Source: a virus
Direction: 5' to 3' (one strand)
Virus record (IMG/VR): IMGVR_UViG_3300030419_005136
Coordinates: 1-39,492 of that record
DNA: 39,492 nt
Part shown: one piece after another, positions 11,874 through 27,171 of the stretch
Layout of the letters: each line of letters begins with the position of its first letter
Position numbering within the stretch: the stretch's first letter is position 1
The notes under the pieces: model-generated
Told to the model about the DNA's origin: nothing
Seen by the model: only the letters and a program-made list of their open reading frames with translations
Databases searched by the model: none
Translations under genes and position numbers: made by a program

Positions 11874-12339
11874 CCCGCACCCCCTCTAAACACACATCAC
11901 GCTCAACGGCGCGGCGTCTTGCCAGCCCGCGCAACCGCTCACCACCGGCATACACCCAGCGGGACAACTCATTGCATGCAGCCTCAAGCTCCCCAGCATT
12001 CGCCAGCCGGGCCAGCGTCGAACGCTGCAGGTTGCCCGCGCCCACGTTGAACGTGAACGAAACGAACGCGGCGCGGGTATCATCGGGAAGGGGCGCGGTA
12101 ATGATGCGATCCACCGCGCTCAGCGCCTCGCGCATGTCCTGCTCTAGCAACGCGTCACACTCTGCCGGGGTGAGCGTTTGGCCTGGGGCTGCCGTGGCCG
12201 TGTGCCCGGTGCATACCGTCCACACGCCTACCGCGTCGCGGTAGCTCTCCAGCTTGGTGCCCTCGAACGGCACGATGATGCCCGCCGCTATCGCCATTAC
12301 TGCGCCCACTCCGGCGCTAATCGCTCTCTTGTTGGCCAT
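11773..12339 (-). CDS. SAR-type endolysin (GH24 / T4-lysozyme-like muramidase)
   Basis: ATG 12339 with a GGAGAG SD. The weakly hydrophobic N-terminus AISAGVGAVMAIAAGIIVP is followed by the catalytic E-x8-D-x5-T pattern FEGTKLESYRDAVGVWTVCTGHT. Confidence 0.8.
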   Translation of the reverse strand: MANKRAISAGVGAVMAIAAGIIVPFEGTKLESYRDAVGVWTVCTGHTATAAPGQTLTPAECDALLEQDMREALSAVDRIITAPLPDDTRAAFVSFTFNVGAGNLQRSTLARLANAGELEAACNELSRWVYAGGERLRGLARRRAVERDVCLEGVRDAEQAANEADSVGAGDSAGRWHWFDVATQWVTG

Positions 12340-12610
12340 TGCGCTCTCTCCGGCGGTTGTCAAAATGCTTCCAAATATCGAACGCCAAGCGCAGCCCGAC
12401 GAACACCAGACCGCCAACGCTCACCACATCAGCCGTCACCACGTGAACGCCTCCCATCTCAAACCATGGCGCATTCAGTAGCGACACCACCTCGCCGGGC
12501 GAGGGTGAAATATCCATGACGGCGGCCGCGCTGGCCTTAGACGTTTGCGACACAGCAGACACGCCACTGCCGCCCACGTACGCAATCACACGGCCAGCGT
12601 CGACTTTCAT
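12317..12610 (-). CDS. putative holin or pinholin
   Basis: A 97-aa ORF directly upstream of and overlapping the endolysin. It has a C-terminal TM helix (VVSVGGLVFVGLRLAFDIW) plus a charged tail. The family was not recognised. Confidence 0.5.
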   Translation of the reverse strand: MKVDAGRVIAYVGGSGVSAVSQTSKASAAAVMDISPSPGEVVSLLNAPWFEMGGVHVVTADVVSVGGLVFVGLRLAFDIWKHFDNRRRERNGQQESD

Positions 12611-12634
12611 AAGCAATCACCAAATCGCAGACAT

Positions 12635-12659
12635 AAAAAAACCGCCCGGTGAGGGGCGG
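12635..12659 (-). terminator. promoter-proximal intrinsic terminator upstream of the holin (tR'-like)
   Basis: Minus strand CCGCCC-ctcacc-GGGCGG followed by T7, ending 25 nt before the holin ATG. Confidence 0.7.
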
Positions 12660-12755
12660 CATGTCTAAACACGGAACATTAAAGGGCTTGCTGCGGGGCT
12701 AAGGGAACGGAAATACCCCACATGCCATAAACGATAGATCAAAGTGCCACCGGAT

Positions 12756-12774
12756 GCAACACTTAGCGTGTTAA
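12756..12774. promoter_or_regulatory. ACAC-N5-GTGT operator-like palindrome overlapping a candidate -35 of a late or lysis promoter
   Basis: The site reads gcAACACttagcGTGTTaa. On the minus strand its arm overlaps TTGCAT-17nt-TATCGT, about 75 nt upstream of the terminator at 12635-12659. Confidence 0.4.
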
Positions 12775-12857
12775 ATGCCCCTCAAGAGTGTTACACACCA
12801 GCATGCCAACCACCATCACGGCACGTGCTGGATACTCTTAACAGATAGGTTTGCTCA

Positions 12858-14126
12858 TTACCCCGCCACCCCTTGCCACCACTGGGGCTGGTCGCTGTTG
12901 TGATAAAACGACAATCTTGGTTCTGTCTCGGTCAGAAACACGCTAAAACCGCGCTCACATAGCCAGGTATGCCAGCGCTCCAACGCATCGAGAATCTGCC
13001 GCTCAGCGTAGGTATGAATGTAGGTACGGTCGAGCTTCGATAGCGCATGGTTCAGCAACAACTCACCGGCCAGATACTCGACCCCGAGGTCAGCCCACGT
13101 TGTACGGGCCAGCTTACGCAGGTCATGGGAATGCCACCGCGCACCGCTGGCACTCACCACCAAATCAAACACGGCTGAACGGGATAGCGGCTTTCCTTTG
13201 GATGCACCAGGGAACAGATACACGCCCCGGTAACCGTTCGCCTGCTGATAAGCGCGGTAACGGGTTAGCAGCGTCACGGCCATGGGCGTTAACGGCAGGC
13301 GGTGTTGTCGCTTTGATTTTGTGTTGTCGGTAGGGATAGTCCAGGTGCGCGCTTCCAGATCGAACTGAGGCCACTTCGCTAAACGCGTTTCCCCTATGCG
13401 GGTGCCAAACAGCAGCATCAACAACAGCAGGAAACACCCCGGCGGTTCGCACGAACGCAAGGCGCTTATCAGATCGGGCACATCGGCAGCGGTTAGCGCC
13501 CCCGCCTTAGCTGGGGTTTTCGCGTCGATGAAATCACCCACATTCACGCCTGCGAAGGGGTCAGTATCCAGCAGGTTCAGCTTACGGGCTTGCTTAAACG
13601 CGGCTTTGATCACGCCAAATATCAAACGAACGTAAGCAACGGAATAATGCTCTTGCAGCGGCCACACCAAGCCACTGTCGATACACGCCGGGGTAATGCC
13701 TGCCAACGGCTGGGCACCGAACAGGGGCAATAGGTGCCGATTAACGGCGGTTTTGATCGATGATTTTCGAGTAGCGGATAACCGGCCATGAGACGCCGAA
13801 CGGTCACGATACCAACACAGCAGGTCAGCCACGGTTTCCCACGCATCGACGCCCACCGGCCCCGCCGGATCAAGCGCCAGCTTGGCCTCCAACTCAGGCA
13901 ACCGCGCCAGCAGGGCGCGGGTCGTCAACTCCGGGTAATTGCCCACCCGATGCCAATGGCCACGCCCACCCGCGTAGCGCACCACGTACCAGCTGGCACG
14001 CTCACGGGAAGCATGAAAGCGCACCCGCACCGGGTAGCGCGGGTCGCGCAACTGGAAAATATCAGGGTCAGGTAGGTGCCGCTTAATCGCAGCATCAGAG
14101 AGGGGAACAGCGAGGGTTTTAGGCAT
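12858..14126 (-). CDS. int: tyrosine integrase (P4-like)
   Basis: 422 aa. The C-terminal catalytic region reads ...RIGETRLAKW...HSHDLRKLARTTWADLGV...LLNHALSKLDRTYIHT (R, H-x-x-R, H, Y). Confidence 0.85.
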   Translation of the reverse strand: MPKTLAVPLSDAAIKRHLPDPDIFQLRDPRYPVRVRFHASRERASWYVVRYAGGRGHWHRVGNYPELTTRALLARLPELEAKLALDPAGPVGVDAWETVADLLCWYRDRSASHGRLSATRKSSIKTAVNRHLLPLFGAQPLAGITPACIDSGLVWPLQEHYSVAYVRLIFGVIKAAFKQARKLNLLDTDPFAGVNVGDFIDAKTPAKAGALTAADVPDLISALRSCEPPGCFLLLLMLLFGTRIGETRLAKWPQFDLEARTWTIPTDNTKSKRQHRLPLTPMAVTLLTRYRAYQQANGYRGVYLFPGASKGKPLSRSAVFDLVVSASGARWHSHDLRKLARTTWADLGVEYLAGELLLNHALSKLDRTYIHTYAERQILDALERWHTWLCERGFSVFLTETEPRLSFYHNSDQPQWWQGVAG

Positions 14127-14188: not shown

Positions 14189-14224
14189 GCGTTATTGCGT
14201 TATATCACGCTAGCGTTATAGCGC
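14189..14224. repeat. variant copy of the dispersed GCGT/ACGC-box 30-mer, just upstream of int
   Basis: gcgttattgcgttatatcacgctagcgttatagcgc shares the aacgctagcg core and the GCGT/ACGC boxes with the other copies. Confidence 0.5.
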
Positions 14225-14225
14225 T

Positions 14226-14438
14226 CTAATTAGTGATAGGGGTTACTCGATTCGCCGGAACGTAGCGAATGCGTGACTTATGCTCCATATCCCTCCAATT
14301 CCGGTCACCAAACACCTTTAGCTTTAAGCGACCATCCGGCATTTCCTTCAAGACGTGACAACGCATGTGATAACGCTTCACCCATCGGCAGCAGTGGTAA
14401 CACTCTAATAGGTGAGTGGCGTTTTCAGATGTAAGCAT
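14226..14438 (-). CDS. small Cys/His-rich hypothetical protein (low G+C)
   Basis: ATG 14438 with an AGGGAG SD. The 70-aa product reads MLTSENATHLLECYHCCRWVKRYHMRCHVLKEMPDGRLKLKVFGDRNW... Confidence 0.5.
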   Translation of the reverse strand: MLTSENATHLLECYHCCRWVKRYHMRCHVLKEMPDGRLKLKVFGDRNWRDMEHKSRIRYVPANRVTPITN

Positions 14439-14814
14439 CACGCTCCCTCACACGATCCTTGAGCGCCTCTAACGCCCGCTCAATCCCTAGCAGCGCCTCA
14501 GCGTTATAGAGGTTCGCATGCGGCCCATCTTAAAAACGCTCAAGGCGGTCAGCACACACCGCCAGCAACGCTTCTATGCTCACACCGTTAGGCCCAACCT
14601 CCTGCGGGTTGCCGTCCTGAAAGCTGATACACCCCAGCACCTGAGCGCCACCGCTCATCATCTCACAGTCAGCGCCCACACCAATGAGGTAATGGTTTTG
14701 GGCACCACCTGGGGAGTACGGCCCGTGAGCGATAACCGCTTGGCCCATGTCACCGCGCCCGTTGGGGCTAACGGCATGCCCGGTCACTAACCGGGGCTGA
14801 TCGAGATTAGGCAT
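14425..14814 (-). pseudogene. phage accessory gene interrupted by an in-frame TAA (14530-14532); possible Acb2/Tad1-hairpin-like C-terminus
   Basis: ATG 14814 with an AGGAGG SD gives 94 codons, then TAA. The same frame continues for 34 codons (DGPHANLYNAEALLGIERALEALKDRVRERDAYI) to a TGA that overlaps the next gene start. Confidence 0.5.
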
Positions 14815-14871
14815 TGCATGCCCTCCTACTGTCGGTTCTGAATAGCGCGCCAACGCTCATTGCCATTTGCT

Positions 14872-14901
14872 GCGTTATAGCGTGCTAGCGTTATTTCACG
14901 C
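14872..14901 (-). repeat. dispersed 30-bp GCGT/ACGC-box repeat, copy downstream of Q
   Basis: gcgttatagcgtgctagcgttatttcacgc. Its reverse complement matches the copies at 19628 and 20988 at nearly every position. Confidence 0.7.
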
Positions 14902-15048
14902 TTACCACTCGATGCGCCCCAAAGCGGGCGATAACGCTTGTTCTTGCTGCCTTCTTGGTAGTGCTGGCAGGCACCACCATAGAAAACGTCTTAGGCTTCC
15001 TGCCTTCCAAAACGGTCACGCGGAATACACGGTTAACCGCTTTGGAAG

Positions 15049-15474
15049 TCACAGCCCTAGCACCTGCTCAACATGCAAACGGGCCTTAGCCAACCGCCGC
15101 TTGTACGTTCTCACCCCCATTTCTAACGCGTGGGCCTTCTGCAGCTGCCCTATATTGCGGTGGTCATAGCCACGCAGCTTGCGGCGGCTCACCACCCGCG
15201 CCACGCCCGCGTTGTACTCCAGGCGCAGCACGTCGGCGGTCAACAGATCCTCACGCGCCAGCGATACCACCGCATACTCGATGCGCTCTTCGAGCGGGTA
15301 CGACTCCGCACCCATGGGCGGGGCGCCGCCAGCGGTCGAACGGCTCACCACCCCGCCGTTATCGATCAACACGCCCAGCAGCGACGTACCCAGCGCAGCA
15401 CCGCCGCCCTGCAGGCACCAGCGCGCCCAGCGCTCTAACAGATCATCCAGATCATTTGCTGCCCGACGCCCCAC
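15049..15474 (-). CDS. Q-like late antiterminator
   Basis: GTG 15474 with a GGAGG SD. The N-terminal LLERWARWCLQGG and the C-terminal region-4-like HTH (GVRTYKRRLAKARLHVEQVL) fit my recollection of the Phage_antitermQ family. It is the last gene of the early-left operon. Confidence 0.55.
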   Translation of the reverse strand: MGRRAANDLDDLLERWARWCLQGGGAALGTSLLGVLIDNGGVVSRSTAGGAPPMGAESYPLEERIEYAVVSLAREDLLTADVLRLEYNAGVARVVSRRKLRGYDHRNIGQLQKAHALEMGVRTYKRRLAKARLHVEQVLGL

Positions 15475-15476
15475 CG

Positions 15477-15809
15477 CTACGCCTCCACAATCGTCAGCGG
15501 GTACAACTCCTCGACCTGCCGCTTTTTGAGCTTATACATATCGGTACGCATGCCCTTCACGTCGATCCACTCCACCGAGCCATCAGCGCGGAACACCACA
15601 AAATCAACGATGTATTTCACCCCACCCGGTAGGGCGATAGGCACTTGCATTAGGAACATCGTCACGCGGTCGGCCTGCTGCTCGCTCAGCAGGTACAGGT
15701 AGTAATTCGCCTCTTTTTTCGAGTCGAACGTATGGCCGTGAATGGTCACTTTCTTGTTGTTGTACTTAGCCGCATTGGGCGCACGGCGGCGCATGTTATG
15801 CCGTTGCAT
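15477..15809 (-). CDS. DUF1064-type protein (putative Holliday-junction resolvase or nuclease)
   Basis: ATG 15809 with a GGGAGG SD. Motifs KYNNKKVTIHGHTFDSKKEANYY ... YIVDFVV ... IDVKG are typical of DUF1064. Confidence 0.6.
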   Translation of the reverse strand: MQRHNMRRRAPNAAKYNNKKVTIHGHTFDSKKEANYYLYLLSEQQADRVTMFLMQVPIALPGGVKYIVDFVVFRADGSVEWIDVKGMRTDMYKLKKRQVEELYPLTIVEA

Positions 15810-16035
15810 GCTGCCTCCCCACCCAGCGGTTAAAATCACTCACTAGTGCCAAATAGGCGCGCCCAGCGTCGAGATTCCCGTCTAGCTCACGGCGGCTAAG
15901 CACCCCACACGCCAGCCGCACCTCTGCCGCCGCCGTGGCGGCATCCGGCACTGCGCGCCCAGTGGTAGCCGTGAGATAGTCACGAAATAGCGGGTTATTG
16001 CACAGCATCGCCGCGCCCTTGGCGTATCGGCTCAC
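15796..16035 (-). CDS. hypothetical early protein
   Basis: GTGA overlap with the upstream gene. 79 aa: MSRYAKGAAMLCNNPLFRDYL... Confidence 0.45.
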   Translation of the reverse strand: MSRYAKGAAMLCNNPLFRDYLTATTGRAVPDAATAAAEVRLACGVLSRRELDGNLDAGRAYLALVSDFNRWVGRQHATA

Positions 16036-16442
16036 GCAACACCCCGCTTAGCCCACAGCTCAGACAGCGCCGCCTCACCATCGATAAAATGGCGGTGGCC
16101 ATCCTTGGTGGCGGTGGCCAGCAGATCCCCGCGCACAATGGGCACCTCGTCGCTGGGCACGCCCTCCACATGCACCACGTGACCGCCCAGTTTACGGATG
16201 CGGTCAGCCTCTACCCGATGCACCACGTGGGCCACCACCAAGCACTCCGCGCCCTTGGCCGGGGTCGCGCTAATCATCCCCTCAAGGCGCTGCATGCGGC
16301 GTGCCACTTCGGCATGAGAGCCAAAGCGCTGCGCGGGCGCATCGGTATAGACCGACACGGTACAAATCTGCGCATCACGCATTGCCCGCGCCACGCGCTC
16401 GCGTGCCGTCGCGTTAGCGCCAGCAATTCCAATCAATAGCAT
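16032..16442 (-). CDS. hypothetical early protein with degenerate P-loop-like N-terminus
   Basis: ATG 16442 overlaps the upstream stop. The product begins MLLIGIAGANATARERV...; no confident family. Confidence 0.4.
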   Translation of the reverse strand: MLLIGIAGANATARERVARAMRDAQICTVSVYTDAPAQRFGSHAEVARRMQRLEGMISATPAKGAECLVVAHVVHRVEADRIRKLGGHVVHVEGVPSDEVPIVRGDLLATATKDGHRHFIDGEAALSELWAKRGVA

Positions 16443-16999
16443 TCGACGGCCTCTCTGAGTCGTTGGGCGCGATGCGCCTGCAAAATGTCGTGCAACACGG
16501 TCACCTTGGCCGCATCGCCCTGACGCAACGCCGCCTCGACTGCCGCGCTCATATCCCCCACGGTCACACGGGAAACGCACCAGCGGGCGAAATAGCGCAG
16601 GTTATCGGGGTGGTTCGCCACGTGGGGCGGGTAAGCCAGATCATTGATAAACCACGCCGCCCACTGCTCGGCGCGGTGATAAAGGGTGTCATCGGTGGGT
16701 GCCTGGGCAGGGTCTGCGCGTTCAAGCGTCGGGCAATGCACCGTGAGTGATTCGCCATCATCCTCGACGATCAACAGCCCCTGCGCTTGGTAAAACGCCA
16801 TAAACTCACGGGCGCTATCGTCGTCGGCCTGCATCAAATCGCCCCACGCCACATAGGTTTTTTGTACCGGCCCGGTAGCGGCGGCTAGGGTTTCCAGCAC
16901 CAGCAAATAGCGGGCATAGCCAATCAACCCATACTCAGCCGCCACGGTGGCCACGCCCTCGCTGTGCGCAAGCCCGGCGGGGTGAACAAACCCACTCAC
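16433..16999 (-). CDS. hypothetical early protein (possibly replisome-organiser N-terminal-like)
   Basis: GTGA overlap with the Cro-like gene. The segment VAAEYGLIGYARYLLVLETLA recalls DUF4373-type domains. This assignment is weak. Confidence 0.35.
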   Translation of the reverse strand: MSGFVHPAGLAHSEGVATVAAEYGLIGYARYLLVLETLAAATGPVQKTYVAWGDLMQADDDSAREFMAFYQAQGLLIVEDDGESLTVHCPTLERADPAQAPTDDTLYHRAEQWAAWFINDLAYPPHVANHPDNLRYFARWCVSRVTVGDMSAAVEAALRQGDAAKVTVLHDILQAHRAQRLREAVECY

Positions 17000-17280
17000 G
17001 CCGCCACCCCGTCGCGCTCAGCCAGCACCGCCGCCCAAGGGCCATAGATGCCGTTATAATCCACCGCGCCAGCGGTCAACCGCACGATGCGCCCAGCGGT
17101 GCGTAAACTCGGGGCACGATCAAAGCGATACCAGCTCATCACCGTACGGGGCTTCTCGCTGAGCAGCGCGCCCGCACAGTCCGGCCCGCCCACTTGATCA
17201 ATCCAATCATTCAGCAACACTTTAGCGCACCATTTAACACGAATTGTGTTAAGCCTAGCGCGAAGATTGCCCACGTACAA
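16996..17280 (-). CDS. Cro/YdaS-like HTH regulator, first gene of the leftward operon
   Basis: It is divergent from the CI-like gene. The HTH-like segment is GGPDCAGALLSEKPRTVMSWYRFDRAPSLRTAGRIVRLTAGAV. The start codon is uncertain (TTG 17280 or an internal GTG). Confidence 0.5.
   Translation of the reverse strand: MYVGNLRARLNTIRVKWCAKVLLNDWIDQVGGPDCAGALLSEKPRTVMSWYRFDRAPSLRTAGRIVRLTAGAVDYNGIYGPWAAVLAERDGVAA
17234..17252. promoter_or_regulatory. operator-like perfect palindrome TTAACAC-gaatt-GTGTTAA
   Basis: 7-bp perfect arms with a 5-bp spacer, at the 5' edge of the Cro-like ORF facing the CI gene. Confidence 0.6.
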
Positions 17281-17298
17281 AGGTTTTTTTATTCCACA

Positions 17299-17317
17299 CT
17301 TACACGCTTTGTGTATT
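17299..17317. promoter_or_regulatory. operator-like palindrome cTTACAC-gcttt-GTGTAtt in the cI/cro divergent region
   Basis: It has the same ACAC-N5-GTGT core, in the 131-bp intergenic region between the divergent regulators. Confidence 0.55.
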
Positions 17318-17411
17318 ACTATTGCCTAAGAGGTAATATTTACCCGAAAATTAATCACCGAAGGCGCACACGGACGGCATCAACGGCGGGATAGATAACG
17401 GGAAGCGGAAA

Positions 17412-18065
17412 ATGTCACAGCAAAGCGACAGACAGGACAAAAAAGAGCTAATCGCACAGCGACTAGTGGAAGTGCGCACCCACTTAGGGTGGTCGATCCG
17501 CGACGCAGTCGAAGCGCTCGGCTACGTGCGCTCTCGTTATACCAACTGGGAGCTAGGCATTCGCATGCCCGGCTATCAAGAATTGGAAGACATCGGCAAC
17601 GTAACTGGCTGCAACCCCGGCTATTTTGTCGGCTGGACAAACCGCATGATCGACAGCAGCTACGTCGTGCTAGACCGCACCACGGTTAAAACCCGTGGCG
17701 GCTCGATCACCGTGCAAAACGCCACCGATGTAGCCGCCTACCGCGACGACTACCTAGCCGAAAAAGGGCTAAAGCCCAGCAGTATTATCACCGTCAAAGC
17801 CGAAGATGACGCCATGGAAGGGGTTATCAGCAAGGGCGATTTAGCGCTAATCGACATGAGCCGCAAGCCCGATGCCGTGCGCGACCTGTTCGCCATCCTC
17901 GTGGGTGATCGTATCTGGCTGCGCTGGATACGCCCGGAAATCAACGGCAGCTACACCATGAGCGCCGAAAACAGCCACCAATACCCGGATGAAACCCTCA
18001 CCACCGAGCAGCTACAACAGCTCAACATCATCGGACGCGTCGCCATCATCGAGCACGAACGCTAA
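17412..18065 (+). CDS. CI-like repressor: XRE HTH + S24 peptidase-like domain lacking the catalytic Ser and Lys
   Basis: The N-terminal HTH is LIAQRLVEVRTHLGWSIRDAVEALGYVRSRYTNWELG. The C-terminal LexA/CI-like fold has DDAM in place of GDSM/GNSM and WLRWI in place of VKRL/FKKL. Confidence 0.75.
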   Translation: MSQQSDRQDKKELIAQRLVEVRTHLGWSIRDAVEALGYVRSRYTNWELGIRMPGYQELEDIGNVTGCNPGYFVGWTNRMIDSSYVVLDRTTVKTRGGSITVQNATDVAAYRDDYLAEKGLKPSSIITVKAEDDAMEGVISKGDLALIDMSRKPDAVRDLFAILVGDRIWLRWIRPEINGSYTMSAENSHQYPDETLTTEQLQQLNIIGRVAIIEHER

Positions 18066-18098
18066 CCCCCGCCCAGCGGAAAAACACCCCACTCCTAG

Positions 18099-18126
18099 AA
18101 CGGCACCTACAAAGTGCCGTTTTTTG
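18099..18126 (+). terminator. intrinsic terminator after the CI-like gene
   Basis: AACGGCAC-ctacaaa-GTGCCGTT followed by a T-run. Confidence 0.75.
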
Positions 18127-18135
18127 GCTTGCCGA

Positions 18136-18174
18136 ATAACACAATTAGTGTCACTCTTACACAGACTGTGTAAT
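18136..18174. promoter_or_regulatory. two adjacent operator-like palindromes (aTAACAC-aatta-GTGTCac; cTTACAC-agact-GTGTAAt) ahead of the rightward operon
   Basis: They have the same ACAC-N5-GTGT core as the sites at 17234 and 17299. They lie between the cI terminator and the gene at 18191 and overlap the -10-like TGTAAT. Confidence 0.55.
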
Positions 18175-18190
18175 CAAGAGGGTTTCACTA

Positions 18191-18448
18191 ATGACCACGC
18201 AAGCGCTAGCCACCGTTGCCGCATCGCCCCCCATCGCCTGCACGCCACAAGCGCTGCACCAAGCACTGCGCGAAAGCGTGGCTATCGCCTGCGGCCTCGA
18301 AAAAATGGCCCAATGCGCGCTAGATGAAGGCGAGTACCCAGCGGAAGAACTCGACAACCTTTTTGCTCTCATTAACCGCCACCGCCGCGATTTAGAAGAG
18401 ATCAAGGCCGCGCTGGCCGAACTCGCCACGGGTGGCCGCCATGAATAA
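18191..18448 (+). CDS. hypothetical early protein
   Basis: ATG with an AGAGGG SD. 85 aa, acidic, no recognised motif. Confidence 0.5.
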   Translation: MTTQALATVAASPPIACTPQALHQALRESVAIACGLEKMAQCALDEGEYPAEELDNLFALINRHRRDLEEIKAALAELATGGRHE

Positions 18449-18842
18449 CGCCCTCACATGGCGCGACAACGACGCCCTCGCCCAGCCCGGCCAAGCCCTC
18501 AGCGACCAAGAGCTAGCCCACCTGCTCGCCCTCGCCAACGGCAACGCCCCTAGCGCCATTGCCGCCATGAACGGCACCAGCCGCGCCCAACAGCAGCAAC
18601 TAGAAAGCAGCCTGCGGGCCAAGCTGGGCGCGTTCAGCAAAGCGCACCTCATTACCCGCGCGTTCGTGCTGGGCGTGCTGCTACCTCGCTGCCTCACCGT
18701 GCTACTGATCGTCGCCACACTCGGTAATGGCGCCCAACAAGATGCCATCGCCCAGCGCCTACCCCGCCGCCCCACGCAAACCGCCAGCGCCCGCCTAATG
18801 CGTACTCAGCGGGGCAGTAGCGCAGGGGGTCGCCGCACATGA
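18441..18842 (+). CDS. LuxR/GerE-type HTH protein with hydrophobic C-terminal segment
   Basis: LSDQELAHLLALANGNAPSAIAAMNGTSRAQQQQLESSLRAKLGAFSKAHLITRAFVLGVL resembles the LuxR C-terminal HTH. The start could instead be GTG 18432. Confidence 0.45.
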   Translation: MNNALTWRDNDALAQPGQALSDQELAHLLALANGNAPSAIAAMNGTSRAQQQQLESSLRAKLGAFSKAHLITRAFVLGVLLPRCLTVLLIVATLGNGAQQDAIAQRLPRRPTQTASARLMRTQRGSSAGGRRT

Positions 18843-19141
18843 AACCGCACACCCTCACAGGTCCACGGCGTCGGCACTGCCGCTGTCGCGTCTGTCACGG
18901 GCGGCAGGTCAAGGCCAAACACCCGGACGACTACACCCGCCGCATTCGCTGCAAACACTGCGGGCGGTTCGACACCCTGGCGGTCGACAAATGGGCCGAT
19001 AACCGGGGCTGGCGTAAATACACGTGCTATTGCGATGGCTACCACTTCCCGCACCGCATCCGCTCAGAATTCTGTTTTGAAAACCCACACTACGGCGACC
19101 ACGAAGAACGCCGGTTAACCGCTTACGGGGTGATGGCATGA
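18839..19141 (+). CDS. Cys/His-rich zinc-binding hypothetical protein
   Basis: ATGA overlap with the upstream gene. Multiple CxxC/CxC pairs (CRCRVCHG, CKHCG, CYCDGYHFPHR). Confidence 0.5.
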   Translation: MKPHTLTGPRRRHCRCRVCHGRQVKAKHPDDYTRRIRCKHCGRFDTLAVDKWADNRGWRKYTCYCDGYHFPHRIRSEFCFENPHYGDHEERRLTAYGVMA

Positions 19142-19653
19142 AAATTATGGCGACCGACCTACCACTAAGCCACTGGCAGCGCATTGCCGAACAAAACGGC
19201 ATTCAGCGCAGAACGTTTCTCTATCGCCTGAAAACCATGGACGCGAAAAAAGCCGCCACCAAGCCGCTCAAAAAAGGTGGCATAAAGCCCAGCGCCCAAA
19301 GCAAGCGCCAAAAAAGCCTAGCCGCCGGGCTAGATGAATGCGCCCTAAGCCGCTACCGCCGCGAACACCCCGAAAGCCAGCTAAGCGACGAAGCCGCCCT
19401 AGCCTTTCTGCAAGCGCGCAAAGCCAAACTGCAAAACACCCTACGCGAACGCGCCCTTGCAGCAGGGCTAAGCCCCCAGCTGGTGTATCACCGCATTAGC
19501 CGCAACTGGCCGCTAGATAAAGCACTCAACACCCCGCCCATGCCCACCAGCCACGCGGCCCGCATCGGCGGCAAAGCCCGCGCCCAGCAAAAGCGCGAAC
19601 GCCGCCAGAAGCGGCTTCAGCAAGCAGCGTTAAAAAACGCTAGCACGCAATAA
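19138..19653 (+). CDS. basic hypothetical protein with two HTH-like repeats
   Basis: ATGA overlap with the upstream gene. The stop codon lies inside the 30-bp repeat at 19628-19657. Confidence 0.5.
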   Translation: MKIMATDLPLSHWQRIAEQNGIQRRTFLYRLKTMDAKKAATKPLKKGGIKPSAQSKRQKSLAAGLDECALSRYRREHPESQLSDEAALAFLQARKAKLQNTLRERALAAGLSPQLVYHRISRNWPLDKALNTPPMPTSHAARIGGKARAQQKRERRQKRLQQAALKNASTQ

Positions 19654-19657
19654 CGCA
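19628..19657 (+). repeat. dispersed 30-bp GCGT/ACGC-box repeat
   Basis: gcgttaaaaaacgctagcacgcaataacgc differs from the copy at 20988 at one position. Confidence 0.75.
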
Positions 19658-19684
19658 AACAAAACCGACACAGGAAGCCCCGCC

Positions 19685-20854
19685 ATGTGGTTTACCAACA
19701 TCACCGTTTACCAGCTCCACAACGCCCAAGCGATCGACAGCATAACGCTGCATGAAACGCTGCAAGCAGAAGCCGCCAAGCCGTTAGGCAATACCGACGC
19801 CAAGCGCCTTGGCTGGACACCCCCAGCAGGTCGCGCCAGCAACGCCTATTTACATGAAAGCCAAGGCCACCGCCTGCTCAGCATGCTCAAACAGCAACGC
19901 ATGCTGCCGCCCAAGGTCGTCAAAGCAGCGGTCGAGGAAAAGGTCGCGGAAGTCGAAGCCAACGAAGGCCGCAAGGTCACGCGCAAAGAAAAAACCGCCT
20001 TCAAAGAACAGATCACCGAGGAGCTGCTACCCCGCGCCTTTATCGATAGCGTCAAAATCGACGCATGGTGGGACGTAGAAAAAAACCGCATCATCATCAA
20101 CAGCGGCAGCCGCGCCCGCTGCGAAGAGCTGTTAGACCTGCTACGCGAAACCCTCGGCAGCCTCAAAGCCACCCCGCTCAGCACCCAAACGCTACCCATC
20201 CGCGCCATGACCACCTGGGTAGGCGACGCCAGTCACCGCCCCGCCAACCTCCAGCTCGGCGACAAAGCCACGCTCAAAGCCAAAGGCGACGACGGTAAAA
20301 TAGCCGCCACGCAAGTGGATCTCGACAGCGACGAAATACAGCAGCTACTCGAAAGCGGGCGCCAAGCCACCAACCTCGCCATTACCATCGACGAACGCGT
20401 GAGCGGCGTACTCACCGACAGCCTGCAGCTAAAAGGGCTGCGCTTTAGCGACAAGCTCATAGAGCAAGCCGACATGACCGAAACAAAGAGCGACGACGGC
20501 GACGACGCCATCGCCCGGCTGGAAAGCGACTTTTTCCTCATGGCCCACGCCCTAAGCGACACGCTGGATAGCCTCGTTCACATGCTGGGCGGTGAAACCG
20601 TACGTGAAGTAGCAGCAGAAAAAGGCACACGCCCCGACGACAGCCACCCCGGCGAACAGATCGGCGGCTTTGAAAAAGAAGAGCCGTTATTGAAAGAGGC
20701 CATCGAGCTAGTGAAGCGCTCCCCGCGTGACAAGCTCACGGTTTCCAAGCTCCAGCGTCATTTCAAAATTGGTTACAACCGCGCCGCATGGATGCAAGCC
20801 TACCTGATCCAAAACGGCCACATCCCCGACCACTACGCGCAGCTAACCCCATGA
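19685..20854 (+). CDS. rdgC: RdgC-like recombination-associated protein fused to an FtsK-gamma-like winged helix
   Basis: The N-terminus MWFTNITVYQL matches E. coli RdgC MLWFKNLMVYRL, with colinear RdgC blocks for about 300 aa. The C-terminus DKLTVSKLQRHFKIGYNRAAWMQAYLIQNGHI matches FtsK gamma [28 protein letters not shown]. Confidence 0.75.
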   Translation: MWFTNITVYQLHNAQAIDSITLHETLQAEAAKPLGNTDAKRLGWTPPAGRASNAYLHESQGHRLLSMLKQQRMLPPKVVKAAVEEKVAEVEANEGRKVTRKEKTAFKEQITEELLPRAFIDSVKIDAWWDVEKNRIIINSGSRARCEELLDLLRETLGSLKATPLSTQTLPIRAMTTWVGDASHRPANLQLGDKATLKAKGDDGKIAATQVDLDSDEIQQLLESGRQATNLAITIDERVSGVLTDSLQLKGLRFSDKLIEQADMTETKSDDGDDAIARLESDFFLMAHALSDTLDSLVHMLGGETVREVAAEKGTRPDDSHPGEQIGGFEKEEPLLKEAIELVKRSPRDKLTVSKLQRHFKIGYNRAAWMQAYLIQNGHIPDHYAQLTP

Positions 20855-21003
20855 ACACCGCCACCCTCTACCGCTGCTACAACCCCAAATGCAACCAGGG
20901 CAACACCCCCGGCTGGATGCTAGGCGCTAACCCCATTTGCCCCAAGTGCGGCCACTGGCTCACGCGCCAGCCCAACGATAACGCCAGCGTTAAAAAACGC
21001 TAG
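20851..21003 (+). CDS. 50-aa zinc-ribbon protein
   Basis: ATGA overlap with rdgC. Two CxxC pairs (CYNPKC ... CPKC). The stop codon (TAG) lies inside the 30-bp repeat. Confidence 0.45.
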   Translation: MNTATLYRCYNPKCNQGNTPGWMLGANPICPKCGHWLTRQPNDNASVKKR

Positions 21004-21017
21004 CACGCTATAACGCA
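20988..21017 (+). repeat. dispersed 30-bp GCGT/ACGC-box repeat
   Basis: gcgttaaaaaacgctagcacgctataacgc. Confidence 0.75.
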
Positions 21018-21036
21018 ACCAACAGGAACCGATGCC

Positions 21037-21168
21037 ATGCCCACCCCGCTAATGCTACTGATCGGGCTAGCCGCTGCCGCCGTCGCCTACGCCGGGTGGC
21101 AGTGCAAGCGCGAAATGGAACAGCTCGACCACAACGGCGACCCCATCGAGAAGGACGAACAGCCATGA
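21037..21168 (+). CDS. 43-aa single-TM peptide
   Basis: Below the ORF-track cutoff. The product is MPTPLMLLIGLAAAAVAYAGWQCKREMEQLDHNGDPIEKDEQP. Its stop overlaps the next ATG (ATGA). Confidence 0.35.
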   Translation: MPTPLMLLIGLAAAAVAYAGWQCKREMEQLDHNGDPIEKDEQP

Positions 21169-21410
21169 TCATCGACCACCGCGCCAAAAACGCCCAGCGC
21201 ATTCCCTGCAAAGAGTTTCGCGGTGAATGCCGCATGTGCCAAAGCGGGTTTATTGCCCGCAGCGGGGTATGCTCGGGCGTCAACCCTGACAGCGCCAGCG
21301 CGCCCGACTGCCTGCGGGACGAAGTGCCAGAACACCTATGCCAGCCCAACGGCCTGCCGCTAGGATGGGGTAAATTCACGCAGGATAGCGCCAGCGAGGC
21401 CCGACAATGA
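21165..21410 (+). CDS. 81-aa Cys-rich hypothetical protein
   Basis: ATGA coupling on both sides. The product begins MIIDHRAKNAQRIPCKEFRGECRMCQSG... Confidence 0.45.
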   Translation: MIIDHRAKNAQRIPCKEFRGECRMCQSGFIARSGVCSGVNPDSASAPDCLRDEVPEHLCQPNGLPLGWGKFTQDSASEARQ

Positions 21411-21991
21411 GAAATTCACCTATTTCAAAGCTGAAAGACCACCAGAGGCCAGCAGACAGCACAGCTCTAAGGGTTGGTTTTTTCAAAGGTGAAAACTTTG
21501 AAGTTGAGTTCACTCACTCTCGGCCCAAGAGACGGATAACGCTAGAAAACCCGCCGCCAAAGCCAAAGATGCCTGCAACCGCCAAAGACTACGCAGGAAT
21601 GCGCAACGGCAGAATGACCGCGTTTTTCTGGTTTAGAGAGTCACCCAGCAAAACCAGCTCAATATGGGTGGTGAAGTGCGACTGCGGCAGATATGAATTC
21701 AGAAAAAAAATAGGACGCTGGATAAAAGGTTATAAAGACGGCAACGACATGTGCGAGATATGCGAGAGAGAAAGAGAAATGCTCACCGGGCGCACATCAA
21801 AAGAAAACGAAGGAAAAAGGCGACTGCGTTTCATTGAAAAAATGCGTACCAAGGGTCTTCAAGACAATGATATAGAAAGGCTAATGCGCTTGGGAGTAGG
21901 TCTTGAAACGGCTAAAACCAAAAGCGAAATTCTAGACGCCATCGACGCTAAAGAAGCTAGCTTGAAAGAATACCAGGAGCGCCAGCATTGA
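21407..21991 (+). CDS. low-G+C hypothetical protein with CDCG...CEIC zinc motif
   Basis: 194 aa. The block YAGMRNGRMTAFFWFRE...IWVVKCDCGRYEFRKK...DMCEICERE resembles a widespread phage GRLTV...W.C.CDCG motif family. G+C is much lower than in the neighbours. Confidence 0.55.
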   Translation: MRNSPISKLKDHQRPADSTALRVGFFKGENFEVEFTHSRPKRRITLENPPPKPKMPATAKDYAGMRNGRMTAFFWFRESPSKTSSIWVVKCDCGRYEFRKKIGRWIKGYKDGNDMCEICEREREMLTGRTSKENEGKRRLRFIEKMRTKGLQDNDIERLMRLGVGLETAKTKSEILDAIDAKEASLKEYQERQH

Positions 21992-22257
21992 CCACAAAAC
22001 TGCATAGCGCTACTCTGCCCGAAGTCGCTGCAAAATCAGCGACCGGGTTTAGCAGCTCAACGGACATTGGCGCACAAGCGCCCCCAATCATCGTGTAGGC
22101 GCTATTTTTGTGCCCGCGTGATGCACTATGGCGGGCCGTGCGTGGGGCGCTTCGGCGCGCCGGGTTTCCAATGTCCCCGGTCTGCTAACCCGCGTACGGT
22201 TCGCCTCCATCGTTTAGCAGCGACAGGCGAACTCCAACAGACTTGGAGAATCGCACC

Positions 22258-23040
22258 ATGAGCACCCCCACTATCACAGTGTCTGGCGTCACCCTTCCCT
22301 ATATTGAATATCAGCAGCAACCCGTCGTCACTTTCGCCATGATCGACGGCGTACATTCAAAATCCAAGGCGACGGCACGACGCTCATTTCAGCGAAACAA
22401 AAAGCATTTTATTGAGGGTGAAGACTTCTATGCCCTTGATTCTGAAAGGTTGGGACAAATTGTCACTACCTATCCCGACCTGTTTCCGGCGGCAACCACA
22501 CGCCTAACCCTCTTCACCGAAACCGGCTACCTTATGCTGGTCAAATCGTTTACCGACGACCTCGCATGGCAAGTACAGCGCCAGCTCGTCAAAAGCTATT
22601 TCCGCGTCAAAGGCGCGATGCAGCCCACCACCGCCGAGCCCATCCCCACGCCCATCGACCACCGCCAGCGCGAACAGCTCACCAACGCGGCTAACGCCGT
22701 GTTTCGCAATTTCCACGGCATGCGCCAAAGCGCCACCGGCTGGTTTTACAACGGCGTGCGCACCGACTACTGCCTAAAACGCATCGAAGATTTAAGCCAG
22801 GACGACTTCCCGGCGGTGATGGAACGCCTCCAAGCCCTACGCCCCAAGGTGCGCCAATACGAAGATTTTAGGTATGACTTTCAACAGTCGTTTTTAAAAG
22901 AGGTGGTAGGCGAAGGCCAGCCCTACACGGCATGGATCAGCAAGCTAGCCGGTGGCCAACACCACATCGGCCAACGCCCCAACTGGAAAGCGATAGCCAA
23001 GCAAGTGCTAATCCACAACGGCTTACTCACCAAACAGTAA
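22258..23040 (+). CDS. ORF6N/KilA-N domain protein (antirepressor-type DNA-binding protein)
   Basis: ATG 22258 with a GGAGA SD. The N-terminus QPVVTFAMIDGVHSKSKATARRSFQRNKKHFIEGEDFY...LFTETGYLMLVKSFTDDLAWQVQRQLVKSYF fits ORF6N. Confidence 0.6.
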   Translation: MSTPTITVSGVTLPYIEYQQQPVVTFAMIDGVHSKSKATARRSFQRNKKHFIEGEDFYALDSERLGQIVTTYPDLFPAATTRLTLFTETGYLMLVKSFTDDLAWQVQRQLVKSYFRVKGAMQPTTAEPIPTPIDHRQREQLTNAANAVFRNFHGMRQSATGWFYNGVRTDYCLKRIEDLSQDDFPAVMERLQALRPKVRQYEDFRYDFQQSFLKEVVGEGQPYTAWISKLAGGQHHIGQRPNWKAIAKQVLIHNGLLTKQ

Positions 23041-23063
23041 GCCCACCCGCGCCAGCCCACCCA

Positions 23064-23088
23064 AGCCCGCCACCGCGCGGGCTTTTTG
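23064..23088 (+). terminator. intrinsic terminator after the ORF6N gene
   Basis: AGCCCGC-caccgc-GCGGGCT followed by TTTTG. Confidence 0.7.
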
Positions 23089-23102
23089 CTGCCTGAACGC
23101 CT

Positions 23103-23225
23103 GCGTTATAAAACGCTAGCGTTTTAGCGTTTTATCTTGCACCCCTAGCAGCGCTTTTCTATACTAGCGTTATTGCGTGCTAGCGTTATTTAACGCTGTA
23201 ACGCCAGTGCGCAAAAACGCAACGT
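23103..23225. promoter_or_regulatory. array of GCGT/ACGC tetramer boxes (candidate partition site and par operator)
   Basis: The core reads GCGT-tatt-GCGT-gcta-GCGT-tattta-ACGC-tgta-ACGC-cagt-GCGC-aaaa-ACGC (23167-23220). Three more boxes lie at 23103-23130. The array ends 20 bp before parA. Confidence 0.55.
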
Positions 23226-23244
23226 TAGCCAAGGGGAAACACCA

Positions 23245-23895
23245 ATGGGATACAAAATTGCCTTCGTGAGCCAAAAGGGCGGCGTCAGCAAAAGCACCCT
23301 AAGTCGAGCACTCGGCACCACCTATGCGGCGGCGGGCTGGAACGTCAAAATCGCCGACCTCGATATTAACCAGTCCACCTCGTTTACATGGCTGCAGCGC
23401 CGCCTCAAAAGCGGCGTAACGCCCGAGGTGGCGGTGGAAACCTTCGGCACGGTGGCCAGCGCCCTCAAAGTAGCTGACACCTACGACCTAATGATTTTCG
23501 ACGGTGCGCCCCACGCCACCAAAGCCACCGCCGAAGTGGCCCGGCTTGCGGATCTCGTCGTTCTGCCTACCGCGTTAAGCGTTGACGACCTTGAACCCAC
23601 CGTAAGGCTGGCCAACACACTCACCGGCCAAGAGGGCGTACCCATTGAGCGCATCGCCATCGCGCTGAGCAAAGTAGGCAAGAGCAAAACGCAGCTGCAG
23701 GATGCCCGCGCCTACCTCGCCCATACGCCCTATTTTGTACTCGATGGCCAAGTACCCGAGCGCGACGCGTTTGTATTAGCCCAAGATAAAGGGCTGTCGA
23801 TTGTTGAAACCCCCTTCAAAGGCCCGAAGGCCCAAGCGGATGAACTGATACAAAACATCATCAACCGCTTTGAATCACTCGTTCAGTCAGCGTGA
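23245..23895 (+). CDS. parA: ParA/ParF-type partition ATPase (small, type Ib)
   Basis: Deviant Walker A KGGVSKST in MGYKIAFVSQKGGVSKSTLSRALG. 216 aa, with no N-terminal HTH domain. Confidence 0.8.
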   Translation: MGYKIAFVSQKGGVSKSTLSRALGTTYAAAGWNVKIADLDINQSTSFTWLQRRLKSGVTPEVAVETFGTVASALKVADTYDLMIFDGAPHATKATAEVARLADLVVLPTALSVDDLEPTVRLANTLTGQEGVPIERIAIALSKVGKSKTQLQDARAYLAHTPYFVLDGQVPERDAFVLAQDKGLSIVETPFKGPKAQADELIQNIINRFESLVQSA

Positions 23896-23919
23896 AATAA
23901 CGCTAGAACGCTAACACGC
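23890..23919 (+). repeat. degenerate copy of the 30-bp GCGT/ACGC-box repeat between parA and parG
   Basis: gcgtgaaataacgctagaacgctaacacgc. Confidence 0.55.
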
Positions 23920-23932
23920 AGGAGTAAGCAGC

Positions 23933-24175
23933 ATGGCGAAACCGTCACTTAAACCCAGCAGCAAAGGCGCACCACCCACGGCAGCTACCCCCGGCCCGGT
24001 AGTGGGCAACAACACCAGCAAACCGGAAAGCGGCGAAAAGGTGCCGCTGAATTTCCGCGTTGATCCTGAAATGCGCCGGGAGTTTAAAGCGTTTGCCGTA
24101 GAGCATGACATGCAAATGGTGGACGTACTCAAGGAAGCCTGGGCAGCGTATAAGCGGGAAAAAGGGAAGGGCTAA
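23933..24175 (+). CDS. parG: ribbon-helix-helix ParG-like centromere-binding protein
   Basis: 80 aa with an AGGAG SD. It has a flexible basic N-terminus, then VPLNFRVDPEMRREFKAFAVEHDMQMVDVLKEAW (an RHH beta-strand plus helices). Confidence 0.6.
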   Translation: MAKPSLKPSSKGAPPTAATPGPVVGNNTSKPESGEKVPLNFRVDPEMRREFKAFAVEHDMQMVDVLKEAWAAYKREKGKG

Positions 24176-25364: not shown

Positions 25365-25877
25365 CTATCGCAACGATTTAACCAGTGTCAGCTCATCGCT
25401 GGGCAAAGGCTTAAAACCGTATCGCTTATAAAAATCCACCGCATCAGGCAACGCGTTTATCATCAGGGCCACAGACCCCACTAAACGCGACTGATCGGCT
25501 GCAGTTTGCCAAGCAGCCAGTAGCAAACGGCAACCGACCCCCTTGCCTTTTAGTCGGCTATCGACGGCTAAACGCCCTAACGTGGTCACGGGAACGCTTC
25601 GGGGCATGTTCTTTTTTAACTTGCCCATCATTTTTTCGCGGTCCACTGCACCAGATGCAAGCGCAAAATATCCTAGCACTAGCTTTGTGCCTGGGGCGCA
25701 CACTACATAGACCGTAGTAGCACCACTTTGATGGTTGCCTAACGCTTCACTGGCTAAAAACTTATTTAGCGTGAACACGCCACAATCGAAGTGGCTTAGG
25801 TCGTGCTGAGGCGTTAAGAGCTCTGGGGCTGCGACGACGCCCAAATCGGTGTTTTGTTGAGAAGTTTCTGAAAGCAT
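25365..25877 (-). CDS. GNAT-family acetyltransferase toxin (TacT/AtaT/KacT-like)
   Basis: GGAGGA SD. The N-terminus has PELLTPQHDLSHFDCGVFTLNKFL and the acetyl-CoA loop RLAVDSRLKGKGVGCRLL. It pairs with an upstream RHH/DUF1778-like gene. Confidence 0.75.
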   Translation of the reverse strand: MLSETSQQNTDLGVVAAPELLTPQHDLSHFDCGVFTLNKFLASEALGNHQSGATTVYVVCAPGTKLVLGYFALASGAVDREKMMGKLKKNMPRSVPVTTLGRLAVDSRLKGKGVGCRLLLAAWQTAADQSRLVGSVALMINALPDAVDFYKRYGFKPLPSDELTLVKSLR

Positions 25878-26122
25878 GGGTCCTCCGATGCTGGCTGTTT
25901 AATAGCCTCTTCGAAGAACGCGTAGTCGGTTTCATTCAGCATGTAGAATCGTCGGTTCAGCAGTACCTCTTCGGCTTTTCGACATGCGGCTTCCACCACG
26001 AAACTGGTTCGATCTCCCCCCAGCTCCGCTACGGCTCTATCGATCAAGGCGCGTTTTTTAGGGTCAACACGCATATTGAGTGCCAGTGGCTTAGCCACTG
26101 CCTCAGCAGCTGTGCTTTTCAT
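25814..26122 (-). CDS. DUF1778/RHH antitoxin (TacA-like)
   Basis: LNMRVDPKKRALIDRAVAELGGDRTSFVVEAACRKAEEVLLNRRFYMLNETDYAFFEEAI. It overlaps the toxin start by 64 nt. Confidence 0.7.
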   Translation of the reverse strand: MKSTAAEAVAKPLALNMRVDPKKRALIDRAVAELGGDRTSFVVEAACRKAEEVLLNRRFYMLNETDYAFFEEAIKQPASEDPCFQKLLNKTPIWASSQPQSS

Positions 26123-26456
26123 GATGTATGTCCTATCGCTGTTTAAGGGTGTTTCTCTCCTTAGCCTTGCTCAGCAGCTTGTTGCTGCCTGCAAGGCGCG
26201 TTTAGTTTATGGGTTCTGTTGTGCCTTTGGTTGGGTTAGCCATGTGTCATCTCCTTGGTTTTTTAGTAATGGTTTTGCTTTCTTTGCCTGTGTTGGTTGC
26301 CACGATATATAGCAAAATACATGCGGCAACAATTTCAGTATAACATATTATGTAGCTCAAAACTACACAATGTAGCACAGAGCGTTACGCTGCTTTAGGT
26401 ACTCCCTAAGCGCCCACTGGTGGCCCGCCTGATCAATCAGGCGTTTTAGTCAAACC

Positions 26457-26502
26457 CCCACCCAAAACGCCCACCTGCTAAACTGCCCACCCAAAACGCC
26501 CA
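26457..26502 (+). repeat. two 17-bp direct repeats CCCACCCAAAACGCCCA upstream of the serine recombinase
   Basis: Copies at 26457-26473 and 26486-26502, with a 29-bp period. They end 21 bp before the recombinase ATG. Confidence 0.7.
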
Positions 26503-26523
26503 AAACACCGCCAGGGGGAACGC

Positions 26524-27171
26524 ATGTACGTCAGGGGATACCTACGCGCCAGCACGGCAGAGCAGAACGCCCAGCGGGCACGCAGCACGCTAGAACACTT
26601 CGCCGCTGAACATCGCCGTGAGGTAGTGAGCTGGTATATCGAGAATGTGAGCGGCGCTAGCAGCCAGCGCCCGGAACTCAGGAGGCTTCTGGAAGACGCC
26701 AAGCAAGGTGATGTGCTACTGATCGAATCGGTAGACCGCCTTTCCCGCCTGGGGGCGGCAGAGTGGCGGCACCTGCGGGGGCAGATTGAGGCGCTAGGGT
26801 TACGGGTGGTGTCGCTGGACCTTCCCACTAGCTACGCAGCCATGGCCACGCCCAGCCAGGGCGAGGATTTTACCGCCCGCATGCTCGATGCGCTGAATAC
26901 CATGATGCTAGACGTACTCGCAGCGGTAGCCCGCAAAGACTACGACGACCGGCGAACGCGCCAGCGCCAGGGGATAGAGCAAGCAAAGAAGGAAGGCAAG
27001 TACCAGGGAAAGCGGCCCAACAAGGCACTACACCAGCGAATTGAAGCGCTATTGAACGCCCGCGATGGTGAAGGCAAACCGTTCACCACGGCGCGCATTT
27101 GCGAGCTAGCCGGGTGCGGTGAAACCACTGTGAAAAAGGTAAAGCGGGCTATGCGCGAAAAGGCACACTAA
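26524..27171 (+). CDS. serine recombinase (resolvase/invertase family)
   Basis: The catalytic N-terminus is MYVRGYLRASTAEQN. The block VLLIESVDRLSRL and a C-terminal HTH (ARICELAGCGETTVKKV) are present. Confidence 0.8.
   Translation: MYVRGYLRASTAEQNAQRARSTLEHFAAEHRREVVSWYIENVSGASSQRPELRRLLEDAKQGDVLLIESVDRLSRLGAAEWRHLRGQIEALGLRVVSLDLPTSYAAMATPSQGEDFTARMLDALNTMMLDVLAAVARKDYDDRRTRQRQGIEQAKKEGKYQGKRPNKALHQRIEALLNARDGEGKPFTTARICELAGCGETTVKKVKRAMREKAH

Follow-up and report, generated by a model that had tools for sequence, protein, structure and literature searches.

Why do the short DNA boxes that bracket the promoter of a plasmid-type partition locus (par) recur, as a nearly constant 30-bp element, at gene junctions elsewhere in the same viral genome? 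The question is raised by IMG/VR record IMGVR_UViG_3300030419_005136, whose 39,492 nucleotides were analysed in full (hereafter, the window). Judging from sequence comparison and predicted folds, the 30-mers are most probably binding arrays for a ParG-like ribbon-helix-helix (RHH) protein encoded directly after parA in the same genome. For the arrays that lie beyond par we lean, with considerably less assurance, towards a polar role linked to transcription, to which an accessory centromere function may be added.

Copies and architecture of the 30-bp element

Matches to the consensus GCGTKAAAWAACGCTAGCACGCWATAACGC number five in the window and zero in 100 dinucleotide-preserving shuffles, which bears out the near-identical 30-mers reported in an earlier note on this DNA; the starting coordinates given there as 19628 and 20988 were each one base too high, and the correct starts are 19627 and 20987. 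The element is built from an inverted GCGT, a 6-bp AT spacer and three direct ACGC boxes at an 8-bp period, that is, four tetramer boxes in the pattern GCGT-N6-ACGC-N4-ACGC-N4-ACGC. The shorter structural pattern GCGT-N6-ACGC-N4-ACGC matches seven times, against 0.01 expected. Both this pattern and a position-weight scan recover the looser variants described earlier at 14189 and 23103, which are genuine box arrays (14189-14226 and 23103-23130), and neither scan places a copy outside 14.1-24.0 kb when applied to the whole window. The arrays, apart from the operator cluster at 23103-23130 listed with the par locus, are as follows.

14189-14226, minus strand: looser array of about five boxes, 63 bp 5' of the int start codon (14126) and in the same orientation as int
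14872-14901, minus strand: 30-mer, four boxes, no mismatch, between a 53-aa open reading frame (ORF) and the gene at 14530-14853 (minus strand)
19627-19656, plus strand: 30-mer, four boxes, no mismatch, 28 nt 5' of the rdgC-ftsK-gamma start codon
20987-21016, plus strand: 30-mer, four boxes, no mismatch, 20 nt 5' of a 43-aa ORF
23167-23196, minus strand: 30-mer, no mismatch, part of the operator cluster at the parA promoter
23890-23919, plus strand: degenerate 30-mer with three mismatches that separates parA from the RHH gene, whose ATG lies 13 nt further on

A GC hairpin (dG -17) comes after the array at 14189-14226. The 14872 copy had been placed downstream of an antiterminator gene Q, a position that we could not uphold, since the ORFs adjoining this copy have no antiterminator match and Q was not identified.

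Other identities for the 30-mer were considered and rejected. It does not resemble a sigma-70 promoter, its internal TTAAAA and TATAAC being just 13 bp apart, and a promoter scanner sees none at the dispersed copies. It has neither the GC-rich stem nor the T-run of an intrinsic terminator, and the sole terminator-scanner match (23164-23183) is the CTAG-centred operator palindrome at parA. A known RNA family is likewise excluded, as the Rfam matches in the window consist of a C4 RNA only, away from the element.

Copies of the element contain the stop codons of four upstream ORFs, each at its own element position and together covering all three frames:

23890-23919: TGA stop codon of parA at element positions 4-6
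14872-14901: TAA stop codon of the 53-aa ORF 14891-15052 (minus strand) at element positions 9-11
20987-21016: TAG stop codon of a 50-aa zinc-ribbon ORF at element positions 15-17
19627-19656: TAA stop codon of a 171-aa ORF at element positions 25-27

Two of these, at the 19627 and 20987 copies, had been assigned correctly before, and parA and the 53-aa ORF are added here. They had been taken as a sign that a pre-formed element was inserted, an interpretation that the present data do not support. The motif carries stops in all three forward frames, so upstream ORFs in a genome of 58% G+C run until they meet it; a stop-rich, AT-rich motif in a GC-rich genome makes insertion unnecessary as an explanation. 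Target-site duplications were looked for at the copies and none was seen, nor does the element have the characters of a miniature inverted-repeat transposable element (terminal inverted repeats, target-site duplications, variable presence). With its sites also syntenic in relatives, the stop codons inside it are best regarded as a by-product.

The par locus and its candidate binding protein

Boxes of the same kind surround the predicted promoter of a two-gene partition operon, composed as follows.

23103-23130: operator cluster GCGT-N6-ACGC-ta-GCGT-N4-GCGT, directly 5' of the -35 hexamer
23137-23165, plus strand: predicted parA promoter, TTGCAC-N17-TATACT, read from sequence
23167-23220: operator cluster spanning the predicted start of transcription, made up of the inverted 30-mer (23167-23196) and then forward ACGC boxes at 23201 and 23217
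23245-23895, plus strand: parA, encoding a 216-aa protein, a small ParF-like Walker ATPase of type Ib (Pfam CbiA/AAA_31/MipZ; phrog_164, ParA-like)
23933-24175, plus strand: gene for the 80-aa RHH protein, candidate centromere-binding protein (phrog_6024), starting 38 nt after parA

Four boxes stand directly 5' of the promoter, and the inverted 30-mer with its ACGC boxes begins one base past the -10 hexamer. At least 10 GCGT/ACGC boxes bracket TTGCAC-N17-TATACT, in the layout of a type Ib operator/centromere array, and the par region as a whole contains more than 12. Arrays occupy the 23103-23130 position in all relatives and the parA-RHH gap in most relatives examined; in L021 (related loci carry the prefix L) the equivalent of the 23167-23220 operator is a full two-armed palindrome of two 30-mers. 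A consensus promoter scanner did not detect the parA promoter because the -35 hexamer matches at three of six positions. The form TTGNNN-N17-TATACT is nevertheless kept across the family, with a varying spacer.

Both proteins fit a type Ib system. ParA falls within the small Walker class (about 200-220 aa) lacking an N-terminal helix-turn-helix (HTH), and its only PDB sequence matches at E <= 0.001 are 5u1g ParA and 4dzz ParF of TP228, over residues 5-211. The 80-aa protein has a disordered N-terminal half followed by a beta-strand, PLNFRV, and two helices (residues 45-57 and 62-77 in the AlphaFold2 model). A Foldseek search with this model returned RHH proteins for all of the top 19 matches, ParG (1p94) ranking third, consistent with a small RHH protein encoded directly 3' of parA; a profile search of PDB sequences with the same protein retrieved no ParG at E <= 10. 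In the tail (23933-24050), the motif KGxPP...VVGNNTxKP is invariant in the 17 close homologues, and versions of it can be recognised in a good many distant relatives but not in every one; it may serve in ParA interaction or in stimulation of the ATPase.

The closest described architecture is that of ParF/ParG of TP228, where ParG sites are ACTC tetramer boxes with 4-bp AT-rich spacers, direct and inverted, each bound by one dimer, eight boxes forming the operator and twelve the parH centromere (PMC3130281). In TP228 as in the window, the gene of a small Walker ATPase precedes that of a small RHH protein whose N-terminal tail is disordered, 4-bp boxes separated by AT-rich spacers of 4 bp occur in direct and inverted orientation, and sites lie both 5' of and over the operon promoter. 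The two systems differ in the box (ACTC in TP228, ACGC in the window) and in that the window protein has no sequence-level match to ParG. The window also has an extra array between the two genes, and its four-box arrays are dispersed at other junctions, whereas the TP228 sites are described only 5' of parFG. This likeness to published ParG sites (PMC3130281) agrees with the earlier suggestion of the ParG-like protein as binder, which we also consider the most likely candidate on comparative grounds.

Box type co-varies with a beta-strand residue of the RHH protein

A ParA-profile scan of IMG/VR yielded some 80 loci. The comparative evidence was drawn from about 30 related ones, and 31 were scanned for dispersed arrays. 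Down to about 43% ParA identity the loci follow one plan: [inverted 8-bp units]-TTGNNN-N17-TATACT-[forward units]-SD-parA-[units]-SD-RHH gene, where SD denotes the Shine-Dalgarno sequence. Within this plan, box type co-varies with the RHH beta-strand residue that follows NF or NL:

Arg with ACGC: window clade, L136 and L139/L144 (three separate lineages)
Arg with ACGT: L140
Lys with ACGA or AAGA: about 12 lineages
Ser with ACGN (degenerate): L142, L150
Gly-Phe-Lys with GCTA: L116, L127

The association does not reduce to simple inheritance, because the nearest outgroup, L022 (ParA 69% and RHH 66% identical to the window), combines Lys with ACGA, while the far more distant L136 (48% and 36%) combines Arg with ACGC. 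Counted by lineage, three Arg/ACGC stand against 12 Lys/ACGA-AAGA with no crossovers (Fisher ~0.002, by our own arithmetic and taking lineages as approximately independent). In each genome the dispersed arrays match that genome's own par box type, down to the spacer variant (TAGC or TTTA). The proposal that the dispersed boxes are of the same kind as the par boxes is thereby strengthened, since box sequence tracks both par operators and RHH beta-strand across many relatives.

Conservation and mosaicism among close relatives

In IMG/VR contigs 80-97% identical to the window, every copy lies at the syntenic position. Boxes are 99-100% conserved in 7-10 distinct relatives (for the 14872-14901 copy, 100% in 10), against 74-97% for spacers and 81-90% for flanks. 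The more distant L016/L019 clade carries the spacer TTTA where the window has TAGC, both at par and at a dispersed copy.

Several rearrangements adjoin the arrays. L009 is without the rdgC cassette and the zinc-ribbon ORF, with copies 19627 and 20987 merged into one; L003 and L007 have insertions directly 3' of the 20987 copy; and a 1.8-kb three-gene module, found in L005, L009 and L010 (L010 1921-3732), is inserted at window position 23100-23119, between the anti-repressor terminator and the parA promoter, with box arrays flanking it on both sides. The promoter region of this module contains a 25-bp palindrome of its own, AATATAGCTCCATTGGAGCTATATT. By our count over 13-27 kb, about six of some 22 mosaic breakpoints fall near arrays, approximately the arrays' share of gene junctions; enrichment beyond that expectation is not clear, and a recombination hot spot at the arrays was therefore set aside.

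Dispersed arrays follow the orientation of their genes

Outside par, the 31 loci contain 61 dispersed arrays of at least three boxes, against approximately none in shuffles. The Vibrio parahaemolyticus locus L023, for example, has ACGA arrays at 4056, 8318, 13078 and 18863. An array precedes int or its small sub-operon in at least eight lineages, with four to five box types, each genome using its own.

Orientation relative to genes was scored on both strands by the presence, at most 80 nt downstream, of an SD with a start codon and an ORF of 40 codons or more, and by a long ORF ending in the array. After homologous sites had been collapsed into 28 independent clusters, 22 were co-oriented with their genes, one was reversed, four were ties and one was undecidable, that is, 22 of 23 decidable clusters (two-sided binomial p ~6e-6, our own arithmetic). 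All four dispersed arrays of the window and its parA-RHH array are co-oriented with their genes. That replication sets this orientation is unlikely, as those L023 arrays found right of par are on the minus strand, in agreement with their genes.

Downstream of the arrays, an SD-ATG usually follows within 9-30 nt. A strong hairpin comes after about seven of 32 arrays, including the tape-measure/gpU junction in three lineages, and a sigma-70-like promoter after just three or four of 32, which argues that the dispersed arrays are not ordinary promoter operators. Asymmetric, located in short intergenic spaces, oriented with transcription and with upstream stop codons inside them, they instead share these properties with stoperator-type sites, a class of mycobacteriophage sites that lie in short intergenic spaces, block elongation in one orientation and have polarity as their hallmark (PMC9283540). 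Because they are co-oriented with genes, a transcription-coupled, stoperator-like role is suggested for them.

In distant relatives the motif CCAAGGCCGGGCAnnnnGCCAAGGCC was also observed 10-40 nt 3' of several dispersed arrays, ahead of genes for proteins of 100-140 aa; it may represent an RNA structure or an antisense target. Its sites are:

L130, ~12080-12990
L133, ~16250-17160
L024, ~14560
L142, ~16330
L150, ~18320

A circular phage-plasmid

Bases 1-99 and 39394-39492 of the window are identical, and this 99-bp overlap indicates a circular assembly of about 39.4 kb (39,393 bp). Besides par, the following features were recognized.

Window: lambda-like head module and tail genes
12858-14126: int, a tyrosine recombinase; a leftward early operon is also present in the window
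17412-18065: S24/LexA-type repressor, with its own putative operators on either side
19685-20854, plus strand: RdgC fused to an FtsK-gamma (KOPS-reading) domain, in the rightward early operon
22124-22211, plus strand: C4 antisense RNA (Rfam RF01695, 66.7 bits against a gathering score of 45)
22243-23040: ORF6N anti-repressor, directly 3' of the C4 RNA
25365-26122 (minus strand) and 26524-27171 (plus strand): GNAT toxin/TacA antitoxin pair and an invertase-like serine recombinase, between par and the tail genes

Inverted repeats of the form (A/T)ACAC-N5-GTGT occur five times (17236, 17301, 18138, 18158 and 12758), against 0.3 expected. The four that flank the S24 gene are likely its operators; the fifth (12758) lies about 90 bp past the int stop codon. 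The C4 RNA and the ORF6N gene form a c4-ant immunity module like immI of P1/P7, here in a lambda-like phage-plasmid. The GNAT/TacA pair and the serine recombinase are typical plasmid-prophage accessories, and the entire block is replaced in L013. A near-perfect palindrome, ATGTCGCGCTAGCGACAT, lies at about 27797-27814, 5' of a 94-aa ORF (27484-27768, minus strand) and near the serine recombinase, and might act in recombination or as an operator.

The relative L021 is NZ_CP080628.1, a complete circular 45,853-bp plasmid of Halomonas qaidamensis XH36 that has a 96% identical ParA and encodes capsid, portal, terminase and tail genes. In its variable region adjoining the tail genes, it also carries a reverse transcriptase/maturase-family gene (25638-26696) with no equivalent in the window. 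Most contigs bearing one of the 120 listed closest ParA clusters measure 36-46 kb, and the longest is about 62 kb; isolate assemblies of Halomonas, Vreelandella, Salinicola, Vibrio, Photobacterium and Endozoicomonas contributed many of these clusters. Collectively, the window element is a phage-plasmid, and its par locus can therefore be expected to be a working partition system. A megablast of window 13-26 kb against INPHARED phages and an exact 21-mer scan of GTDB representative genomes gave no match; a genome scan with the ParA profile gave, among the matches listed, only distant, unrelated ParA loci.

Proposed mechanism and competing explanations

We infer that RHH dimers, one per box, would bind the 30-mer through a beta-ribbon in the major groove. 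At par, the box clusters would both autoregulate the operon and form the main centromere, in the manner of type Ib loci. The dispersed copies would place the partition protein at junctions inside both early operons and before int, tying its level to downstream expression in a polar, stoperator-like way, as a roadblock or attenuator. Targets of such a brake would include int, the rdgC-ftsK-gamma cassette and other early genes, together with tail genes in relatives. The same arrays might also serve as four-box seeds of a partition complex able to activate ParA. The fullest version, in which the ParG-like protein is a stoperator-type polar brake and its level per copy sets read-through into int, recombination, early and tail genes, is a tentative proposal; if true, the lysis-lysogeny programme would be coupled directly to plasmid copy number and segregation.

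Four other explanations were weighed. The best of them, though still unlikely, is that the dispersed 30-mers are accessory centromeres only, loading the RHH protein and ParA so that the plasmid prophage segregates better, with no role in gene expression. They share their boxes with par and sit on a plasmid replicon; N15 has four dispersed SopB sites; and pSM19035 has six parS sites, four contiguous repeats being the minimum that suffices for activation of ParA by its RHH ParB (PMC9499535), exactly the number of boxes in the 30-mer. This size is compatible with a centromere role, but that role alone is insufficient because it leaves strand polarity unexplained: a centromere has no need of polarity, yet nearly all decidable clusters follow gene orientation. 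In addition, all window copies are within 10 kb of par and not spread round the circle, and par alone already has more than 12 boxes.

Binding by some other regulator encoded in the element, such as its LuxR-type 136-aa protein, the 171-aa protein or a Cro-like protein, which would then also control the par promoter, appears improbable. The early operons do contain several small DNA-binding candidates, but their genes are not conserved in relatives that retain arrays, and the proteins found conserved in every case where arrays occur are limited to ParA, the RHH protein, Int and the S24 repressor. The S24 repressor was itself rejected as array binder on account of its own, different operators beside its gene, and the binder at the arrays would accordingly be the partition protein. 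The correspondence of box type with the RHH beta-strand and the 8-bp tetramer periodicity, typical of RHH proteins such as ParG, argue in the same direction.

Very little probability attaches to the view that the arrays are recombination linkers or a small mobile element marking cassette boundaries, with protein binding incidental. The rdgC cassette missing from L009 lies exactly between two direct copies, the L003 and L007 insertions directly follow the 20987 copy, and arrays flank the 1.8-kb module. Against this, the arrays have neither target-site duplications nor terminal repeats, breakpoints near them only match their junction share, and the boxes are conserved while spacers drift and co-vary with a protein.

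Hardly credible, finally, is an mRNA-level AU-rich leader 5' of the SD that enhances or controls translation of the next gene: co-orientation with genes, array ends often 9-30 nt before a start codon and, in relatives, a last box merging into the SD would suit it, but inverted copies 5' of the -35 at every par promoter would be untranscribed, some arrays precede promoters or terminators instead of start codons, and conserved 4-bp boxes, an exact 8-bp period and co-variation with the RHH protein point to reading of double-stranded DNA.

RHH-protein arrays with a polar role beyond par are the explanation that we prefer, and several observations weigh against it. The link between protein and box is correlative, and two Arg lineages lack ACGC, L140 (ACGT) and L113 (a different unit). 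Foldseek E-values for the 80-aa model are weak (>= 0.3), and in a Pfam scan at E <= 0.01 the protein did not match ParG and reached only RHH_10, scoring 20.4 bits where the cutoff is 27. For the metagenomic loci, genes were called by crude ORF and SD criteria of our own. Across the family the downstream context is mixed, mostly a direct SD-ATG, with some hairpins and rarely a promoter; a promoter scan next to the dispersed copies of the window found none that was recognisable, which makes operator-type repression unlikely there. In TP228, efficient centromere activity needs about eight boxes (PMC3130281).

Precedents and biological meaning

The nearest precedents are omega of pSM19035, the SopB sites of N15 and the stoperators of L5, each of which matches the window in part. 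Omega, too, binds centromeres as an RHH protein and has, on one replicon, multiple separate arrays of short contiguous repeats that double as operators; its repeats are heptads of 7 bp, and every site overlaps a promoter (copS, delta, omega), unlike the dispersed arrays of the window family, which are mostly operon-internal with no promoter nearby and are oriented with transcription. N15, the analogy drawn in the earlier note, is also a phage-plasmid with partition-protein sites (IR1-4) scattered over its genome. The parallel holds for this dispersal and fails for protein and site type: N15 has a type Ia HTH SopB, single palindromic sites, a linear replicon and a protelomerase, whereas the window has an RHH protein, asymmetric four-box arrays and a circular replicon, and is not of the N15 type. 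The stoperators of mycobacteriophage L5 and Cluster A resemble the window arrays in being numerous and asymmetric, in lying within short intergenic spaces, frequently at stop codons, and in pointing with transcription; a stoperator differs in being one 13-bp site to which the immunity repressor binds as a monomer, whereas the window arrays are multi-box and tied to the partition protein, the S24 immunity repressor having separate operators.

Omega of pSM19035 and SopB of N15 are partition proteins that double as global regulators, as does KorB of RK2. In the literature searched, we found neither this phage-plasmid family nor oriented, operon-internal partition-protein arrays described.

Experiments are feasible, since one member resides in the cultured strain H. 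qaidamensis XH36. If binding and polar effect hold, the arrays would provide a simple mechanism tying the expression of integrase, recombination and lytic genes to copy number and segregation. If confirmed, the correspondence of Arg, Lys and Ser with box sequence would offer a compact recognition rule for RHH proteins, and a widespread family of ~40-kb marine phage-plasmids, with hosts among Halomonas, Vibrio, Photobacterium and relatives, would gain annotation.

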